From: a virus
Taxonomy: Duplodnaviria; Heunggongvirae; Uroviricota; Caudoviricetes
Length of the DNA: 5,875 nt
IMG/VR virus record: IMGVR_UViG_2778261251_000017
Direction: 5' to 3' (one strand)
Part shown: positions 1 through 5,875 of the stretch, piece after piece
How the letters are laid out: each line of letters begins with the position of its first letter
How positions within the stretch are numbered: position 1 is the stretch's first letter
The notes under the pieces: model-generated
Database searches by the model: none
Seen by the model: only the letters and a program-made list of their open reading frames with translations
What the model was told of the DNA's origin: nothing
Position numbers and translations under genes: made by a program

Positions 1-23
1 GAAAAACGAGTATTTTTAGTCAT
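1..23 (-). CDS. IS3-family transposase OrfA, first 7 codons only (5-prime partial; continues beyond window)
   Basis: ATG at 23..21 on the minus strand, preceded by GAAAGAGG with 8-nt spacing. Translation MTKNTRF is the N-terminus I associate with IS629/IS1203 OrfA. Confidence 0.6.
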
Positions 24-77
24 CCTGTTTACCTCTTTCTCAGGGAGTTTAGTCTCCAGGATTTCCGGGGCGGTTCA
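1..77 (-). mobile_element. Terminal 77 bp of an IS3-family insertion sequence (IS629/IS1203/IS3411-like end); the body of the element lies beyond the window start
   Basis: The minus strand from 77 downward reads TGAACCGCCCCGGAAATCCTGGAGACTAAACTCCCTGAGAAAGAGGTAAACAGG followed by ATG ACT AAA AAT ACT CGT TTT. This is a TGA-initiated terminal inverted repeat, then an SD (AGAGG), then an orfA start encoding MTKNTRF, which matches my recollection of the IS629-group left end. Not verified against ISfinder. Confidence 0.7.
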
Positions 78-132
78 CTCAGATTAATGTTAAGCGTCTT
101 GCAGGACGCGTAATGTTAACTGGGGCTTTTCT

Positions 133-168
133 CTATCTGCCTTTGGTGTTCATGCCCGAGGCAGATAG
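133..168. repeat. Perfect 9-bp inverted repeat CTATCTGCC / GGCAGATAG separated by 18 nt
   Basis: Seen directly in the sequence (133-141 and 160-168). No U-tract follows on either strand, so it is not an intrinsic terminator. Possibly a protein-binding or recombination site at the cargo boundary. Confidence 0.5.
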
Positions 169-283
169 CCTCAAGCACCCGCAGCCATTCTACTTAACTA
201 CCTTTACCTCGCCAATATGAAATCAGTCAGAAAGACGATCCATAAGAACAATAGCAAGATTTCTTAATGGAGATGGATGTAAG

Positions 284-1771
284 CTAAATATTTTGGCTCG
301 GTCTGCTTTCTATTAAATGCAACCTGTATTTTAAAGCATGATGTGTCCTAAACTCATTTTGTAGATTAATTTTTAAGTTAGGCAAACTACTTACGTATTC
401 CCATCTACCTTGTTTTTTTTGTCCGATAAGTGAGTTATCAAACAGGAAGTTGATATATTGACGTATCACCCCATCAGAAATACCTGCAAATTCATTACGG
501 CACTTCTCGGAGAAATCATTAAAATCGAATGTTTCTACTTGGATAGTTTGAAGAACAGTTAGTAAGTTCTCAATTTCAGGGAATTGGTTGGACCATTCAT
601 CAATCACCTCATTGTACACACTTATAGATGCTTCACGGTCAGCTTCATAAAGCTCATTGGAAGTGTAAAGACCTGAGACATTATTTTTATGACATGCCCT
701 AATTTTGTTGAAGTAGACAATAATATCCCTAGGCCTAAAGAAAGAACGGCGACATATATATTTAAATGGAGGAGTCCCCTGCCTAACGAATGAAACCTCA
801 AATACTTTCCCAGATCTGTCCTTTTCGTCATCTAATATGAGATCATTAGGTTTGTATTTCTTTATCCTCTCATAATACATATCGTTTAGATTATTTTCAT
901 TCCATGAGATTATGATAGCACTATCTTGCAATAATTTGTTTTTATCATTGAATTTCAAAGAATGATAAATATCCGTTCGTAGGAAGGGAATGACTTTTAA
1001 TTTATCATTGAGGCGTTCATCAGATGCTATGTTTCTACAGACATTTAGCAGATTTATTAAAACCTTACTATATTCTTCAATTTGCCCCTCTAGCCAGTTT
1101 TCGTCTAATTGGTCAAGGGCGATAATTATTTTTTCATTACCAATGTTATCTTTAAAAATTTTTTCAAAATACGTAAGCAATGTGAAAGCATTAGCTCTTA
1201 GCTTTTGCTTTAGCTGAGCATTCTCAGCAACTTCCTCTAACGAAATTTCACCTGCGTCCAATGATACTTCATTAAGACCAGCACTGGGCCCTTTTATGGT
1301 TTTTAATCTGGTTATTTTTGAAAACAAAACCTCCCTAAGAGTTGGGTCGGGACTACCAAAGATAGTTTTGATATAATTATGTGCCCACGTTAGATCTTTG
1401 TTTAAAGTCTCTCCAGCATCATTTTTTATTTCAATAAGTTTAGATAATGCCTTAATATAAAAAAGATACATCCAACTTTTTTGATAAGCGGAAAGTTCTC
1501 CAGCCATTGCATCCTTGTAAAGTTGATGGGCTGGCCATGGATAGTCACTAAAATTTAGACATACTGAGTAAAACCCGTTGAGATTGGCTGGTTTTCCTCT
1601 TCTAAGGTGTTCATAAATGGCTGTTTTACCAGTACCTTTTCTTCCAAGAACCAACCAAGCCCTACTTTCAATAATATCCTTTATCGCCGGTAGCTTAAAA
1701 AAATAGGTCTGTAAGTCCCGATCTGTTTCTGCTGAAACTTGAAATTCTGGTAGCCAGTCTCTAATGTCCAC
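284..1771 (-). CDS. P-loop NTPase, 495 aa, family unassigned (Walker A near N-terminus, Walker B about 170 residues later); candidate anti-phage or abortive-infection cargo gene
   Basis: Long ORF with a GTG start at 1771..1769 and an AAGAGGA SD 5 nt upstream. The ATG two nt upstream is out of frame. Walker A LVLGRKGTGKT is encoded at about 1622-1648 and the Walker B-like IIIALDQLDE at about 1100-1129. The gene and its upstream region are markedly AT-rich compared with the neighbouring phage genes (judged by eye, not computed). Stop TAG at 286..284. Confidence 0.8.
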   Translation of the reverse strand: MDIRDWLPEFQVSAETDRDLQTYFFKLPAIKDIIESRAWLVLGRKGTGKTAIYEHLRRGKPANLNGFYSVCLNFSDYPWPAHQLYKDAMAGELSAYQKSWMYLFYIKALSKLIEIKNDAGETLNKDLTWAHNYIKTIFGSPDPTLREVLFSKITRLKTIKGPSAGLNEVSLDAGEISLEEVAENAQLKQKLRANAFTLLTYFEKIFKDNIGNEKIIIALDQLDENWLEGQIEEYSKVLINLLNVCRNIASDERLNDKLKVIPFLRTDIYHSLKFNDKNKLLQDSAIIISWNENNLNDMYYERIKKYKPNDLILDDEKDRSGKVFEVSFVRQGTPPFKYICRRSFFRPRDIIVYFNKIRACHKNNVSGLYTSNELYEADREASISVYNEVIDEWSNQFPEIENLLTVLQTIQVETFDFNDFSEKCRNEFAGISDGVIRQYINFLFDNSLIGQKKQGRWEYVSSLPNLKINLQNEFRTHHALKYRLHLIESRPSQNI

Positions 1772-3515: not shown

Positions 3516-4017
3516 AATTCCATCCAGCTTTTTGTTGGTATTGCAGTCGATACGCAAGTTTGAAAGCAATTGCTTTTTCTATAAGTTCGTCAGTTTCACG
3601 ATCCACTACGGCAGGATCAGCAAAAAGCAGTCCGGACTCCACCACATCGCCATATTCTTTGTTTAACCCGGCGATCATGTACGTGATGCTTTTTCCGTCA
3701 CTAATTTCACGATACAACCTGAAATCATTAATCCGGATAGCCTCCATAATTGCAGGCACTAGCGCCGTGAACTTTTCACGCTTATCCCTAGTGTCGATAG
3801 CCTTCCAGCGTTCGAATATCTTCACTCGATTAACGCCAAGCGCTCGCTGATCAACCGCGCCACCTTCATCTGTGACACGCTGAACATCGATGTTCGGGCG
3901 CTCTTTCAAAGCCCAGAATGCTTCAGTGATTAATATCGTCGCCTGCTCCTGTGTCATTCCTGGTCGACATATCCAGGCATCCAGAGCCTCACGAGCCTGT
4001 TCAGGAGTGATTTTCAT
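3496..4017 (-). CDS. Hypothetical phage early protein, 173 aa, in the position occupied by CII in lambda; family not recognised
   Basis: ATG at 4017..4015 overlaps the cro stop (TGA at 4003..4001) by 17 bp. Its 3-prime end overlaps the preferred rep start by 20 bp. This suggests a translationally coupled cro-orf173-rep operon. Confidence 0.65.
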   Translation of the reverse strand: MKITPEQAREALDAWICRPGMTQEQATILITEAFWALKERPNIDVQRVTDEGGAVDQRALGVNRVKIFERWKAIDTRDKREKFTALVPAIMEAIRINDFRLYREISDGKSITYMIAGLNKEYGDVVESGLLFADPAVVDRETDELIEKAIAFKLAYRLQYQQKAGWNYEPSFC

Positions 4018-4228
4018 TGTTCAACCGCCCCGCCCGCTTCGTCTTACGATATTCGTCATAAACTTTGGGATCATACTGAAGCTCCCCGCCAGATGCCTCC
4101 TGTAGACGCATCGCGCGACCTTCAGGAACCAGTATCCCCCAAGCAGCAACACTTGCCAGTCTCACTCCTGCGGCATTGGCAAGCTTTGTTTTGCTGCCAA
4201 AAAAAGTAATTGCGTCAGCTTTAAGCAT
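4001..4228 (-). CDS. dicC: Cro-like regulator of the DicC/YdaS family, 75 aa
   Basis: ATG at 4228..4226 with a strong SD AGGAGG 5 nt upstream. The track start at 4231 is TTG and too close to the SD. It contains the FGSKTKLA...GV...VxxW motif typical of YdaS/DicC-type Cro proteins. It is divergent from the repressor gene with an operator palindrome between them. Assignment from memory; size matches DicC. Confidence 0.65.
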   Translation of the reverse strand: MLKADAITFFGSKTKLANAAGVRLASVAAWGILVPEGRAMRLQEASGGELQYDPKVYDEYRKTKRAGRLNNENHS

Positions 4229-4241
4229 CAAAGCCTCCTAT

Positions 4242-4308: not shown

Positions 4309-4716
4309 ATGGATACAAGAACCCTAGGCCAGCGAGTTCTGGCGCGACGAAAAGAATTACGCTTAACACAACGAGAAGCTGCGCGCCTCGCTGGGGTTGC
4401 TCACGTCACAATTTCACAATGGGAAAGAGACGAAACCCAGCCAGTCGGAAAACGATTGTTTGCTTTAGCGGATGCTCTGAAGTGCTCACCTACATGGCTA
4501 ATGTTTGGTGACGAAGACAAGGCACCAGTGCCGGCACAAGAACTTCATGTGGAAACAGAGCTAACTCCCAACCACAAAGAATTGATCGAATTATTCGATG
4601 CTCTTCCATCTTCCGAGCAGGAAGCCTTGCTGTCTGAAATGCGCGCAAGAGTAGAAAACTTCAACAAACTCTTCGAAGAAATGCTTAAAGCGCGTAAAAA
4701 TAAATCAATAAAATAA
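4309..4716 (+). CDS. dicA: XRE-family HTH repressor, DicA-like (CI-type immunity repressor without a peptidase domain), 135 aa
   Basis: N-terminal HTH (LRLTQREAARLAGVAHVTISQWE) and a C-terminal helical region with SPTWLMFGDED and NFNKLFEEMLKAR motifs that I recall from E. coli DicA. Same length as DicA (135 aa). Divergent from a DicC-like cro and flanked by matching palindromic operators. No SD upstream of the ATG. Confidence 0.75.
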   Translation: MDTRTLGQRVLARRKELRLTQREAARLAGVAHVTISQWERDETQPVGKRLFALADALKCSPTWLMFGDEDKAPVPAQELHVETELTPNHKELIELFDALPSSEQEALLSEMRARVENFNKLFEEMLKARKNKSIK

Positions 4717-4751
4717 CATTCTTTTCAAGTGATTAGTTGCGCCCACTCTTT

Positions 4752-4771
4752 TTGTTAGACTAATCTAACAA
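4752..4771. promoter_or_regulatory. Operator palindrome TTGTTAGA-CTAA-TCTAACAA downstream of the repressor gene (OL-like)
   Basis: Perfect 8-bp arms with a 4-bp spacer. Same half-site as the operator at 4242-4259. Confidence 0.65.
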
Positions 4772-4778
4772 AAAACAC

Positions 4779-4807
4779 TTGCCTCTTATGTTAGGTTATT
4801 CTAAATT
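4779..4807 (+). promoter_or_regulatory. Putative sigma70 promoter of the early-left (dicB-type) operon
   Basis: -35 TTGCCT (4779-4784), 17-nt spacer, -10 TAAATT (4802-4807), bracketed by the operator copies. An alternative is TTGCGC (4737-4742) with TAATCT (4761-4766). Pattern match only. Confidence 0.4.
4789..4806. promoter_or_regulatory. Degenerate third operator copy TGTTAGg-TTAT-TCTAAat
   Basis: Matches 6/7 and 5/7 positions of the half-sites, with the same 4-bp spacer. It lies 36 bp from the 4752-4771 site and overlaps the spacer and -10 of the predicted early-left promoter. Confidence 0.4.
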
Positions 4808-4884
4808 ACTTTCCATCAAGACACCGCACGGTGTTCTCAGCAAACAGTTCCGCTACCCCGGCGTTAAGGGGAAATGAGGTCAGC

Positions 4885-5037
4885 ATGGATACTATCGATC
4901 TTGGCAACAGCGAATCTCTGGTATGTGGCGTGTTCCCCAACCAGGACGGCACGTTCACCGCGATGACGTATACCAAAAGCAAAACGTTTAAAACCGAATC
5001 TGGCGCGCGTTGCTGGTTAGCCAGAAACACTGACTGA
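4885..5037 (+). CDS. ydfA: Small prophage protein, 50 aa, YdfA/YdaF-like (first gene of the dicB-type operon)
   Basis: ATG at 4885 with SD GAGG 5 nt upstream. The track start at 4831 is not ATG and lacks an SD. The size and position immediately downstream of the dicA-like gene match ydfA of Qin and ydaF of Rac. Sequence identity is not verified. Confidence 0.55.
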   Translation: MDTIDLGNSESLVCGVFPNQDGTFTAMTYTKSKTFKTESGARCWLARNTD

Positions 5038-5048
5038 TGAGGCTGACG

Positions 5049-5414
5049 ATGGAATTTAAAGATTTACCGTCTGATGTACAGAAAACAGCAGCTCATACAT
5101 TGCATTCTGTGCTGCGAGAAATCGGGAAAGATATTGCAAGCGAGCCAGCAAAAGATCTGGCCCGGAAAATCAAGACCGCTTTCGTTGAGCTTTATAATGT
5201 TGGCACTGACTCTGAAACTGTCGAGACCAAGACCGTAAGTTCACCAATATTCTCACTTGAGCCAGGCGTATTATCAGGTGAAATATGCACCGAGATTTCC
5301 AGCGAACTGCTTCCGGTAATACGAGAAGCAATTTGCCGTCGCGGTTTGGATGGAAGTTACGATCATGACGTCCTGCAAGTTCTCAGGACAATGGTGACTT
5401 CACTGGGGATTTGA
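5049..5414 (+). CDS. Hypothetical protein, 121 aa, family not recognised
   Basis: ATG at 5049 with SD GAGG 6 nt upstream. An alternative ATG at 5037 overlaps the preceding stop (TGATGA). It follows the ydfA-like gene in the same operon, where Qin carries ydfB and ydfC. Confidence 0.6.
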   Translation: MEFKDLPSDVQKTAAHTLHSVLREIGKDIASEPAKDLARKIKTAFVELYNVGTDSETVETKTVSSPIFSLEPGVLSGEICTEISSELLPVIREAICRRGLDGSYDHDVLQVLRTMVTSLGI

Positions 5415-5583
5415 TCCCTGCGTCCTCTAACCTTTTGATATAGCGGTCCTCCAAGAAGCGGTAAATTTTGTCGAAATCATCTTTCCCCTCTGGTTTATTC
5501 AGAGGATTACAGGACCCGTAAGTAGCGGCATACATTTCAACCTTTTTATCAAAAATATAAGAGACAAATTCTTCTTTAGTCAT
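5383..5583 (-). CDS. Hypothetical small protein, 66 aa, convergent with and overlapping the 3-prime end of the 121-aa gene
   Basis: ATG at 5583..5581 with SD AAGGA about 8 nt upstream. The track 95-aa version starts at a GTG with no SD. The 3-prime end overlaps the plus-strand gene by 32 bp. Highly charged protein (MTKEEFVSYIFDKK...DRYIKRLEDAGIK). Confidence 0.5.
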   Translation of the reverse strand: MTKEEFVSYIFDKKVEMYAATYGSCNPLNKPEGKDDFDKIYRFLEDRYIKRLEDAGIKSPVKSPLS

Positions 5584-5858
5584 ATAGATTTCCTTCTTGG
5601 TTATTCGGGATAAGAAGGATACCACCTCGCCTGACGTGGTTAAAAGCAGGCACACAACACGAAAGCGCACGGCGAAGTTCGTCTCACTGTACGGTGTCGT
5701 TAAATTTAATTCGACCGTGCGCTTCCGGTTGTGGCAACCCGCGAAATGGCGCGGCGGTAAGTATGGCGGGGTTATTCCTTCCCCGTTGAGGACACCGAGT
5801 TGTCAGGTTGACCATACGCTTAAGTGACAACCCCGCTGCAACGCCCTCTGTTATCAAT

Positions 5859-5875
5859 TTTCTGGTGACGTTTGG
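5859..5875 (+). ncRNA. dicF: 5-prime end of a DicF-like sRNA (first 17 nt only; continues beyond window end)
   Basis: TTTCTGGTGACGTTTGG matches the 5-prime end of E. coli DicF as I recall it (UUUCUGGUGACGUUUGGCGGUAUCAG...). The position downstream of a dicA / ydfA-type operon is as in Qin. It is preceded by a GC-rich, hairpin-rich leader. Confidence 0.5.

Follow-up and report, generated by a model that had tools for sequence, protein, structure and literature searches.

The window analysed here is a 5,875-nucleotide (nt) stretch of a tailed-phage record (IMG/VR IMGVR_UViG_2778261251_000017), taken as the whole of that stretch, and it carries, between a ydfA-like gene and the start of dicF, a gene for a 121-amino-acid (aa) protein and a convergent gene for a 66-aa protein that overlaps its 3' end. 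Sequence comparison indicates that the classical sieB locus is represented here by a new allele, one with a co-evolving partner, and that this locus is itself a widespread hypervariable cargo slot. The cassette at ~5038-5655 appears, from the same comparison, to be one allele of an accessory-gene slot just inside the early-left operon, a slot that sieB occupies in lambda, P22 and Rac. An earlier note, made from the letters of the window alone, had singled out the pair; the present analysis goes beyond it in the hypervariable slot with its conserved flank, in the two-module fusion of the 121-aa protein, and in the finding that only the C-terminal domain of that protein is tied to the 66-aa gene.

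Both open reading frames (ORFs) are protein-coding genes under purifying selection. RefSeq calls both in BL21(DE3), as hypothetical proteins (WP_001320327.1, WP_000159335.1), each protein matches a PHROG of its own end to end (33007, 34441), and in more than 60 loci, in genomes and viral contigs, the pair is present with identical spacing, apart from a copy cut by the insertion sequence IS1 and a few copies that reach a contig end or have an altered start. The 32-nt overlap has equal length in every E. coli-type copy, and 25 of its 32 nt are retained in Cedecea. The ratio of nonsynonymous to synonymous substitution rates (dN/dS), from Nei-Gojobori (NG86) counts with ranges quoted for informative pairs, is 0.11-0.30 in the 66-aa frame and 0.14-0.52 for the 121-aa gene; frames other than the 66-aa frame mostly give ~1, the exception being the antisense frame with common third codon positions, and small counts lower the value in some close pairs. 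Against the Cedecea copy, the 66-aa gene has a proportion of synonymous differences (pS) of ~0.8, which is saturated, and a dN of 0.18. RefSeq calls, own PHROGs, constant geometry and dN/dS together therefore place both genes beyond chance. A second possible ATG for the 121-aa gene, at 5037, overlaps the ydfA stop (TGATG); conservation of the family begins at MEFK, i.e. not at this alternative start. Among 5.8 billion proteins searched, the 66-aa protein had 17 relatives and the 121-aa protein had 22, all of them close and from Enterobacteriaceae, and a literature search by accession, locus tag or PHROG id found no papers on the two genes. An apparent remote homologue in locus L072 was rejected, being the 66-aa gene itself cut by IS1 after codon ~16 (L072 3972-4100). 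Separately, positions 5271-5500, which hold the second half of the 66-aa gene and the C-terminal domain of the 121-aa protein, have a dS of ~0.09 among E. coli-type copies versus 0.3-1.5 in the flanks, a dip that could reflect either recent recombination or RNA-level constraint.

The earlier note had described a 121-aa gene and a convergent 66-aa gene, overlapping by 32 nt, in the place of ydfB and ydfC, the latter gene with a good Shine-Dalgarno (SD) sequence and ATG and antisense to the operon leading to dicF. The coordinates, overlap and start signals (Table 1), the alignment to K-12 and the gene order dicA, ydfA, 121-aa gene, 66-aa gene, dicF bear this out. It had recognised neither protein, and the homology and structure searches that it asked for gave no function; it had also held that a lack of conservation in related prophages would speak against either ORF, and the comparison across such prophages finds both conserved in the more than 60 loci.

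The position of the 66-aa gene is what links it to sieB. In the alignment to K-12 Qin, near-identity runs to the end of ydfA and resumes at ~5655, and the intervening ~5038-5655 (~615 nt) stands in for the K-12 stretch with ydfB and ydfC. The 66-aa gene lies within the early-left operon, one or two genes past the repressor and early-left promoter, on the opposite strand, convergent with the first operon gene or genes, and with a conserved core element upstream. The corresponding order in lambda is cI-rexAB, pL, nutL, N and then an opposite-strand sieB that abuts N; in P22 it is c2, pL, gene 24 and an opposite-strand sieB with an annotated promoter and RNA start; in Rac it is racR, ydaG, ydaF (DUF1391, as ydfA) and an opposite-strand sieB with a 4-nt overlap, followed by the small RNA kilS and kilR where the window has dicF and dicB; and in e14 it is ymfK, ymfJ and an opposite-strand ymfI with a 63-nt overlap. 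Since the convergent 3' junctions are tight throughout (0 nt in lambda, a 4-nt overlap in Rac, a 20-nt gap in P22, 63 nt of overlap in e14), the 32-nt overlap of the window is not special in itself.

The core element, which marks the outer boundary of the slot, consists of two interleaved inverted repeats, GCCTG/CAGGC and ACCAC/GTGGT, and alignment shows it to be common to the window, lambda, P22, Rac, e14 and SfV, lying upstream of sieB in lambda and P22 and, with one mismatch, directly upstream of ymfI in e14. The Rac core has diverged, its GCCTG/CAGGC having become CCCGG/CCGGG through two compensatory pairs, a change compatible with an RNA helix or with a symmetric site for protein binding. 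A blastn search with the sequence upstream of the 66-aa gene also matched SfII, SfV, phiES15, PPompW, Stx2a phages and others, and the core was found in 2068 of 5426 complete E. coli genomes (~38%), in up to four copies per genome, with no annotated feature beneath any listed E. coli core match; K-12 Qin is without it. As a candidate stable RNA the core had unremarkable energy z-scores and no Rfam match. With regard to a likeness of core and hairpin to the antiterminator put RNA of HK022, which has two stems in ~70 nt and acts on RNA polymerase close behind an early promoter, no HK022 record appeared among the blastn matches and Rfam gave no match, the put sequence itself having stood outside the comparison. 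The core is perhaps the lambda tL1 terminator, an assumption of ours that the literature did not confirm.

Two scans of viral contigs show how variable the contents of the slot are. The first, with a pattern that included the -10-like motif described below, returned at least 120 stretches, nearly all of them with a minus-strand ATG 30-35 nt past the pattern, and at least 10 unrelated ORF families. The second used the core alone and was thus unbiased as to the -10-like motif; its 109 distinct contexts fall into two classes. In class I, GGTGGT is followed by TCTCGT and an ATG 56-75 nt further on, and the ORFs are mostly of the SieB family. The annotated promoter and RNA start of P22 sieB lie within the long class I leader, which places the core at -79 to -42, so that it is not the core promoter of sieB there. 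In class II, to which the window belongs, GGTGG is followed by a TATNCT-type hexamer (TGnTATNCT), with the ATG 33-40 nt after GGTGGT in nearly all cases, and the cargo comprises roughly 20-30 different small ORF families that are unrelated by BLAST; 17 cargo representatives, when tested, resolved into 14 BLAST-unrelated families. All 10 cargo proteins that were scanned have no known function in PHROGs, two of them have no PHROG match at all, and none was found in PADLOC at a convincing level.

The cargo seen in loci L144-L370 ranges from 55 to 165 aa and includes multi-pass membrane, zinc-ribbon and helical proteins, nearly all of no known function. SfV carries in the slot an unannotated 81-aa ORF (L142 2261-2506, on the minus strand in that locus; phrog_3311) that is convergent with orf33 over an 83-nt overlap. 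The record marks the hairpin just upstream of this ORF as a putative rho-independent terminator, and neither strand of the hairpin has a U-tract. YmfI and YmfJ of e14 lie at L265 5498-6085, and L201 has a 47-aa ORF of its own that corresponds to the first ~45 aa of YmfJ, which makes YmfJ look modular as well. Several early-left genes with an N-terminal ClpX-type C4 zinc finger (PF06689) have it either fused to the cargo-facing domain (L184, L150) or as a separate small gene (L314 457-678). In L073 (3239-3469, minus strand) a 76-aa ORF missed by gene finders overlaps by 131 nt the 3' end of a gene for the N-terminal module described next, and, as a 75-aa homologue (MTDTTKF...) follows the core elsewhere, it is probably real.

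Sequence comparison divides the 121-aa protein into two fused parts, an N-terminal module of 50 aa that is common and a C-terminal domain that is rare (hereafter N-module and C-domain). PHROGs 9419, 1363, 2151 and 6937 match only aa 1-55 of the protein, and their members differ from one another after ~55. A full HMMER search of 1.84 billion representatives recovered the N-module in 92 clusters at 50% identity, in proteins of 40-204 aa and at the N-terminus in nearly all 92. The AlphaFold2 (AF2) model of the 121-aa protein is confident in the N-module only, with helices at 8-25 and 32-51 and a predicted local distance difference test score (pLDDT) of ~75, and has two low-confidence helices in the C-domain. 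The N-module has a dN/dS of 0.07-0.43 in pairs with enough synonymous changes. The linker is the point where homology to other N-module proteins stops, and it has the highest dN/dS within the gene (0.18-0.50 in informative pairs). The C-domain was found in only one other cluster among the 1.84 billion representatives, that of the Cedecea protein P0111, and differs from it with a proportion of nonsynonymous differences (pN) of ~0.2 at saturated pS. With Foldseek against PDB and BFVD, neither protein gave anything below E = 0.08 except a 52-aa N-module homologue of phage phi191. Homology of the N-module to YdaG, YdfB, YdfC, YmfJ or SfV orf33 was considered and rejected on sequence comparison.

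It is the C-domain, not the whole 121-aa protein, that travels with the 66-aa gene: judged by sequence, the two are co-inherited and co-divergent in three contexts. In the E. coli-type cassette both genes are always present, behind repressors of DicA type, other helix-turn-helix (HTH) type and S24 type, and in front of varied downstream modules. In Cedecea the 66-aa homologue (71% identity) lies within the early-right operon, with cro on one side and a cII-like gene on the other, and the ORF that faces it, with an SD and ATG of its own and sense to the operon, encodes the C-domain without the N-module. The third context is a remote one: the class II cargo of MTKEEK type (59-63 aa) is remotely related to the 66-aa protein (BLASTP 9e-06) and faces, over an overlap of 27-39 nt, a stand-alone 64-68-aa remote relative of the C-domain (E = 0.002; ISSELL..V....G....L..V...I..SL), and both members are under purifying selection, with pS 0.80 and pN 0.21 for the cargo and pS 0.64 and pN 0.36 for the C-domain relative. 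Recombination thus breaks between N-module and C-domain, not between C-domain and cargo, which argues for selection on co-inheritance, though the overlap contributes.

The pattern recurs in an unrelated cargo family of 65-72 aa (...ITVGEL...FSGLDFYRLK...), which is always opposite the same ~60-aa C-terminal domain (...QGFQPPR...), a domain found behind three N-termini: the N-module, a ClpX-type zinc finger (PF06689), or none. Other family-specific facing pairs are the SfV 81-aa ORF with orf33, a 77-aa family with a ~85-aa protein, a 79-aa ORF with a 146-aa N-module protein, and a 74-aa ORF with a 120-aa ClpX-finger protein. Cargos without a credible sense partner include SieB, a 106-aa membrane protein, zinc-ribbon proteins and proteins of 147-163 aa. 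As a separate observation, the Cedecea C-domain gene (L004 3568-3897, minus strand) has lost its stop and continues for 55 extra codons antisense through the whole 66-aa gene, giving the 109-aa ORF of P0111, and the tail of this ORF looks like non-coding translation.

The 66-aa protein is predicted to be a soluble helical hairpin, its AF2 model having helices at 3-21 and 31-54 (pLDDT 69). Neither it nor the 121-aa protein is homologous to YdfB or YdfC. The arrangement also differs from that of the classical toxin-antitoxin (TA) classes: the genes are convergent, where type II pairs are co-directional and co-transcribed, neither product matches a toxin or antitoxin family in Pfam, NCBIfam or PADLOC, and both frames are under protein-level purifying selection, in place of the non-coding partner of type I systems and cis-antisense RNAs.

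We infer that the 66-aa gene has its own promoter at an extended -10-like motif (TGGTATCCT) directly next to the core, because the hexamer is conserved in the pattern expected of an extended -10 element. In the unbiased scan, the short-leader cargos have TATCCT, TATGCT, TATTCT, TATCTT or TATACT at this site, i.e. positions 1, 2, 3 and 6 are kept, 4-5 are free, and TG precedes. A leader hairpin, CCTTCTT/AAGAAGG in the window, covaries across cargo types as CCTTAAAA/TTTTAAGG, CCTTTTA/TAAAAGG, CCTTGC/GCAAGG and CCTTCA/TGAAGG; covarying equivalent leaders were also noted in L142, L145, L148, L150, L168, L205, L226 and others. Its predicted fold is better on the + strand in 20 of 34 leader variants and on the - strand in 10. 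Since the 5' arm overlaps the -10-like motif, the hairpin should lie outside a cargo mRNA that starts ~7 nt downstream, and it may act in RNA of the early-left direction (e.g. an antisense RNA like sas), or else the true transcription start may lie further upstream.

Taking these observations together, we tentatively propose, as a quite possible though somewhat doubtful reading, that the 66-aa protein is a lysogen-expressed accessory or exclusion protein, that the C-domain is its early-expressed cognate partner, and that convergent early-left transcription serves as an antisense brake. The 66-aa gene, with its own start signals and oriented against the early-left promoter, would for these reasons probably be expressed in the lysogen whatever the state of the operon under repressor control; the 121-aa gene lies within the early-left operon, so its product would be made only after derepression or infection. 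The N-terminal 50 aa of the latter would be an exchangeable generic module and the C-terminal ~47 aa the cognate partner of the 66-aa protein. In the lysogen the most likely role of the 66-aa protein would be to exclude other phages or to abort their infection, and during the phage's own lytic growth the early-made C-domain would neutralise it, while early-left transcription through its gene would silence it by collision and by RNA pairing at the 3' ends. The sequence data themselves show that both genes are real, which slot they occupy, that the flank element is shared, that the cargo is diverse, and that C-domain and 66-aa gene are inherited and diverge together; promoter, lysogen expression, protein-protein contact, direction of neutralisation and exclusion phenotype are proposals of this reading. 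The precedent is P22, in which the prophage-made effector SieB, the inhibitor Esc and the antisense RNA sas together allow the phage to escape its own exclusion (PMC12197685, PMC7067206). In an SOS time course of e14, ymfJ was strongly induced late (log2 fold change ~4-4.8, protein detected) and ymfI changed little until the last time point (log2 ~2) (PMC11002266), which fits a split between an early-operon partner and an independent cargo. For the 5' end of K-12 ymfI, nothing was found in public Cappable-seq supplements. The earlier note's suggestion of an exclusion or accessory role fits as far as it goes, because the 66-aa gene has the exact sieB position and orientation and the same upstream core.

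Several points weigh against this proposal. The 66-aa protein is not of the SieB family (PF14163), having no Pfam match and no BLASTP alignment to Rac SieB, which itself matches PF14163 at 1.5e-31, and it has no hydrophobic segment, the maximum 19-residue Kyte-Doolittle mean being 0.14 versus 2.19 for Rac SieB. For both proteins, Pfam, NCBIfam, PADLOC and PDB sequences gave sub-threshold noise only. The self-immunity of P22 lies within sieB itself (Esc) and not in a neighbouring gene, overlapping genes tend to be co-inherited without a functional link, and which partner neutralises the other is a guess. The -10-like motif is a weak one, since TATCCT with its -35 reaches 8 of 12 matches, and this score explains why it is absent from the output of the promoter and terminator scan, in which the 66-aa gene had no upstream promoter and no terminator appeared between the genes. 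Rather unlikely, in our estimate, is the broader form of the proposal, in which C-domain and 66-aa protein would be a cognate module and one of many polymorphic sieB-locus cassettes, each with an antisense lysogen-expressed effector and a sense early-expressed neutraliser, the neutraliser being swapped between carriers such as the 50-aa N-module and the ClpX-type zinc finger and the cassette being exchanged by recombination at the conserved flank.

The same facts can be read with the polarity reversed, as in an addiction-like TA system: the C-domain protein would be an early harmful or host-takeover effector, comparable to Kil and DicB, which are encoded further along these operons, and the 66-aa protein a constant lysogen antidote to leaky early-left expression. 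This accounts equally for co-inheritance and co-divergence, the operon is toxic upon derepression (PMC5069750), and the C-domain on its own has the low AF2 confidence noted above; we nevertheless regard it as unlikely, since known type II pairs are co-directional and neither protein matches a toxin or antitoxin family, since the same antisense position elsewhere holds SieB, an effector rather than an antidote, and since it is the 66-aa side that is better conserved in the remote pair (pN 0.21 vs 0.36). Improbable to a similar degree is that the two are unrelated neighbours, the 66-aa gene a stand-alone moron and the 121-aa gene an ordinary early gene, kept together by the overlap and by a 66-aa transcript whose 3' end falls inside the C-domain coding region. 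Several slot cargos do lack a credible partner (the 106-aa membrane, zinc-ribbon and 147-163-aa proteins), and the neighbours of SieB differ among lambda, P22 and Rac. The overlap, however, covers only 32 nt, whereas selection at the protein level acts on all ~47 aa of the domain in three contexts; the breakpoints fall inside the 121-aa gene, between N-module and C-domain, and not between the two genes; and the same pattern is seen again in an unrelated pair family.

An RNA-level function, in which antisense RNA from the 66-aa promoter brakes read-through to dicF and dicB or destabilises the 121-aa mRNA in the manner of OOP and the peptide is of minor account, would draw on the convergence of the genes, on the scan having found no terminator between them, on the low dS (~0.09) in mid-cassette versus 0.3-1.5 in the flanks among E. 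coli-type copies, and on the precedents of sas and OOP. It has to contend with protein-level purifying selection on the 66-aa frame across a saturated synonymous distance, and with the many unrelated slot ORFs that each retain an SD and ATG at a fixed distance, and we hold it to be very unlikely. That the 66-aa ORF is a chance antisense ORF and no gene might be suspected from its shortness, its want of a known domain and its antisense position within an operon; this is already contradicted by conservation (dN/dS 0.11-0.30 in its own frame only, an intact frame in more than 60 loci and across genera with conserved SD and ATG, and a remote homologue at the same site), and can for practical purposes be dismissed.

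The window as a whole spans the immunity region and early region of a lambdoid E. coli prophage of Qin-like type. Positions 4700-5875 are 100% identical to strain ETEC1738 and 99.4% to BL21(DE3) and REL606, and the cassette is found at 99.7% identity in mEp460_ev081, a functional temperate phage from an infant gut, with dicB, dicF, dicAC and rem (PMC10448788). Following the 495-aa ORF come a DUF977 gene, a 339-aa ORF, a YdaT-like gene and then the DicC/Cro-like gene. The ydfA-like gene is near-identical to K-12 ydfA. At the end of the window the start of dicF gives a partial Rfam DicF match with E = 3.1, cut short by the window end; beyond this point BL21(DE3) has dicB, ydfD, a truncated exonuclease VIII gene, xis and int. 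At the other end, the 495-aa ORF occupies a place where BL21(DE3) has no annotation; it has no Pfam domain and a weak PADLOC match only (PDC-M28C, E = 4e-05), and may be another accessory or defence gene.

Table 1. Features of the window and of the core element in related loci; coordinates are window positions unless a locus is named.
Feature	Position	Strand	Details
121-aa gene	5049-5414	+	ATG 5049, TGA 5412-5414; GAGG 6 nt upstream of ATG
N-module of 121-aa protein (aa 1-50)	5049..5198	+	two-helix domain; alone or fused to many C-termini
Linker of 121-aa protein (aa ~51-74)	5199..5270	+	predicted disordered, pLDDT <50
C-domain of 121-aa protein (aa ~75-121) and stop	5271..5414	+	co-occurs and co-diverges with 66-aa gene
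66-aa gene	5383..5583	-	ATG 5583-5581, TGA 5385-5383; AAGGA 7 nt upstream
3' overlap of the convergent 121-aa and 66-aa genes	5383..5414	.	32 nt, read from sequence
Leader hairpin CCTTCTT/AAGAAGG	5591..5619	.	pairs 66-aa SD (5591-5595 on +, AAGGA on -) with 3' half of -10-like hexamer
Extended -10-like motif	5616..5624	-	candidate promoter of 66-aa gene
-35-like TTAACC	5638-5643	-	16 nt upstream of -10-like motif
Conserved core, outer boundary of slot	5621..5651	.	minus strand GCCTG-CTTTTA-ACCAC-GT-CAGGC-GAG-GTGGT, 31 nt
Core in lambda	L268 ~590-636
Core in P22	L267 2149-2186
Core in Rac	L264 5560-5605
Core in e14	L265 5426-5456		coordinates extend a few nt either side of the pattern match
hok/sok locus	21-180	-	sok antitoxin RNA, Rfam RF01794, 62.3 bits, E = 1.7e-12; counterpart of hokD in BL21(DE3)
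495-aa ORF	284-1771	-	between hok/sok and DUF977 gene
DicC/Cro-like gene	4001-4231	-
DicA-like repressor	4309-4716	+
ydfA-like gene (DUF1391)	4885..5037	+	first early-left operon gene downstream of dicA; Pfam DUF1391 E = 4e-27
5' end of dicF, cut by window end	5859..5875	+	last 17 nt, identical to K-12

SieB has been known since the 1970s-90s, and we found no earlier description of its locus as a general cargo slot. The slot is the site of dozens of almost entirely uncharacterised small ORFs, several with a co-evolving partner on the opposite strand, and the 31-nt core offers a simple sequence handle for prophage accessory and defence genes that are too small for current defence-finder pipelines. 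Functional hypotheses follow for ymfI and ymfJ of K-12 and for two hypothetical genes of BL21(DE3), where the pair lies immediately upstream of the toxic dicF-dicB module and could influence its leakiness. If the pair model holds, defence with cognate self-immunity would extend to a modular, polymorphic family; if the broader cognate-module reading holds as well, the slot would hold a large and so far unexplored stock of small systems that exclude phages and bring their own self-immunity, and BL21(DE3) would carry one of these.

Among known systems, ydfB and ydfC of K-12 Qin occupy the same interval, from ydfA to the dicF leader, but both are on the sense strand and have no homology to the window pair. 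The cII/OOP pair and type I TA systems with a 3' overlap share with the window convergent transcription and complementary 3' ends in a phage early operon; they differ in that conserved proteins are encoded here on both strands. BstA with its aba element and lambda Rex with ren share the concept of a lysogen-expressed gene near the repressor that acts against other phages, with a matching escape function on the prophage; the BstA and Rex genes run in the direction of the repressor gene, and in protein and mechanism they are unrelated to the window pair. Another known system is ymfI/ymfJ of e14, a convergent pair with a 63-nt overlap by the repressor gene, with the core and TATGCT upstream of ymfI and a sense partner that is induced with the prophage; this pair is uncharacterised as well, and its protein sequences are unrelated to those of the window. 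A further parallel is sieB of lambda, P22 and Rac, which like the 66-aa gene is the first convergent gene in the early-left operon, by the first early gene, antisense and with the same core. SieB differs in being a protein of 162-192 aa with PF14163 and membrane segments, against 66 aa and neither feature in the window; the leaders differ too, that of the window being short with the -10-like motif fused to the core, and the mapped PsieB lying ~40 nt further on. If the analogy with sieB/esc/sas of P22 is sound, the likeness would extend to a prophage-expressed gene that the phage itself must escape with the help of an opposite-strand antisense RNA (PMC12197685, PMC7067206), with the difference that the antidote proposed for the window is a separate domain encoded on the sense strand, whereas that of P22 is an internal translation product.

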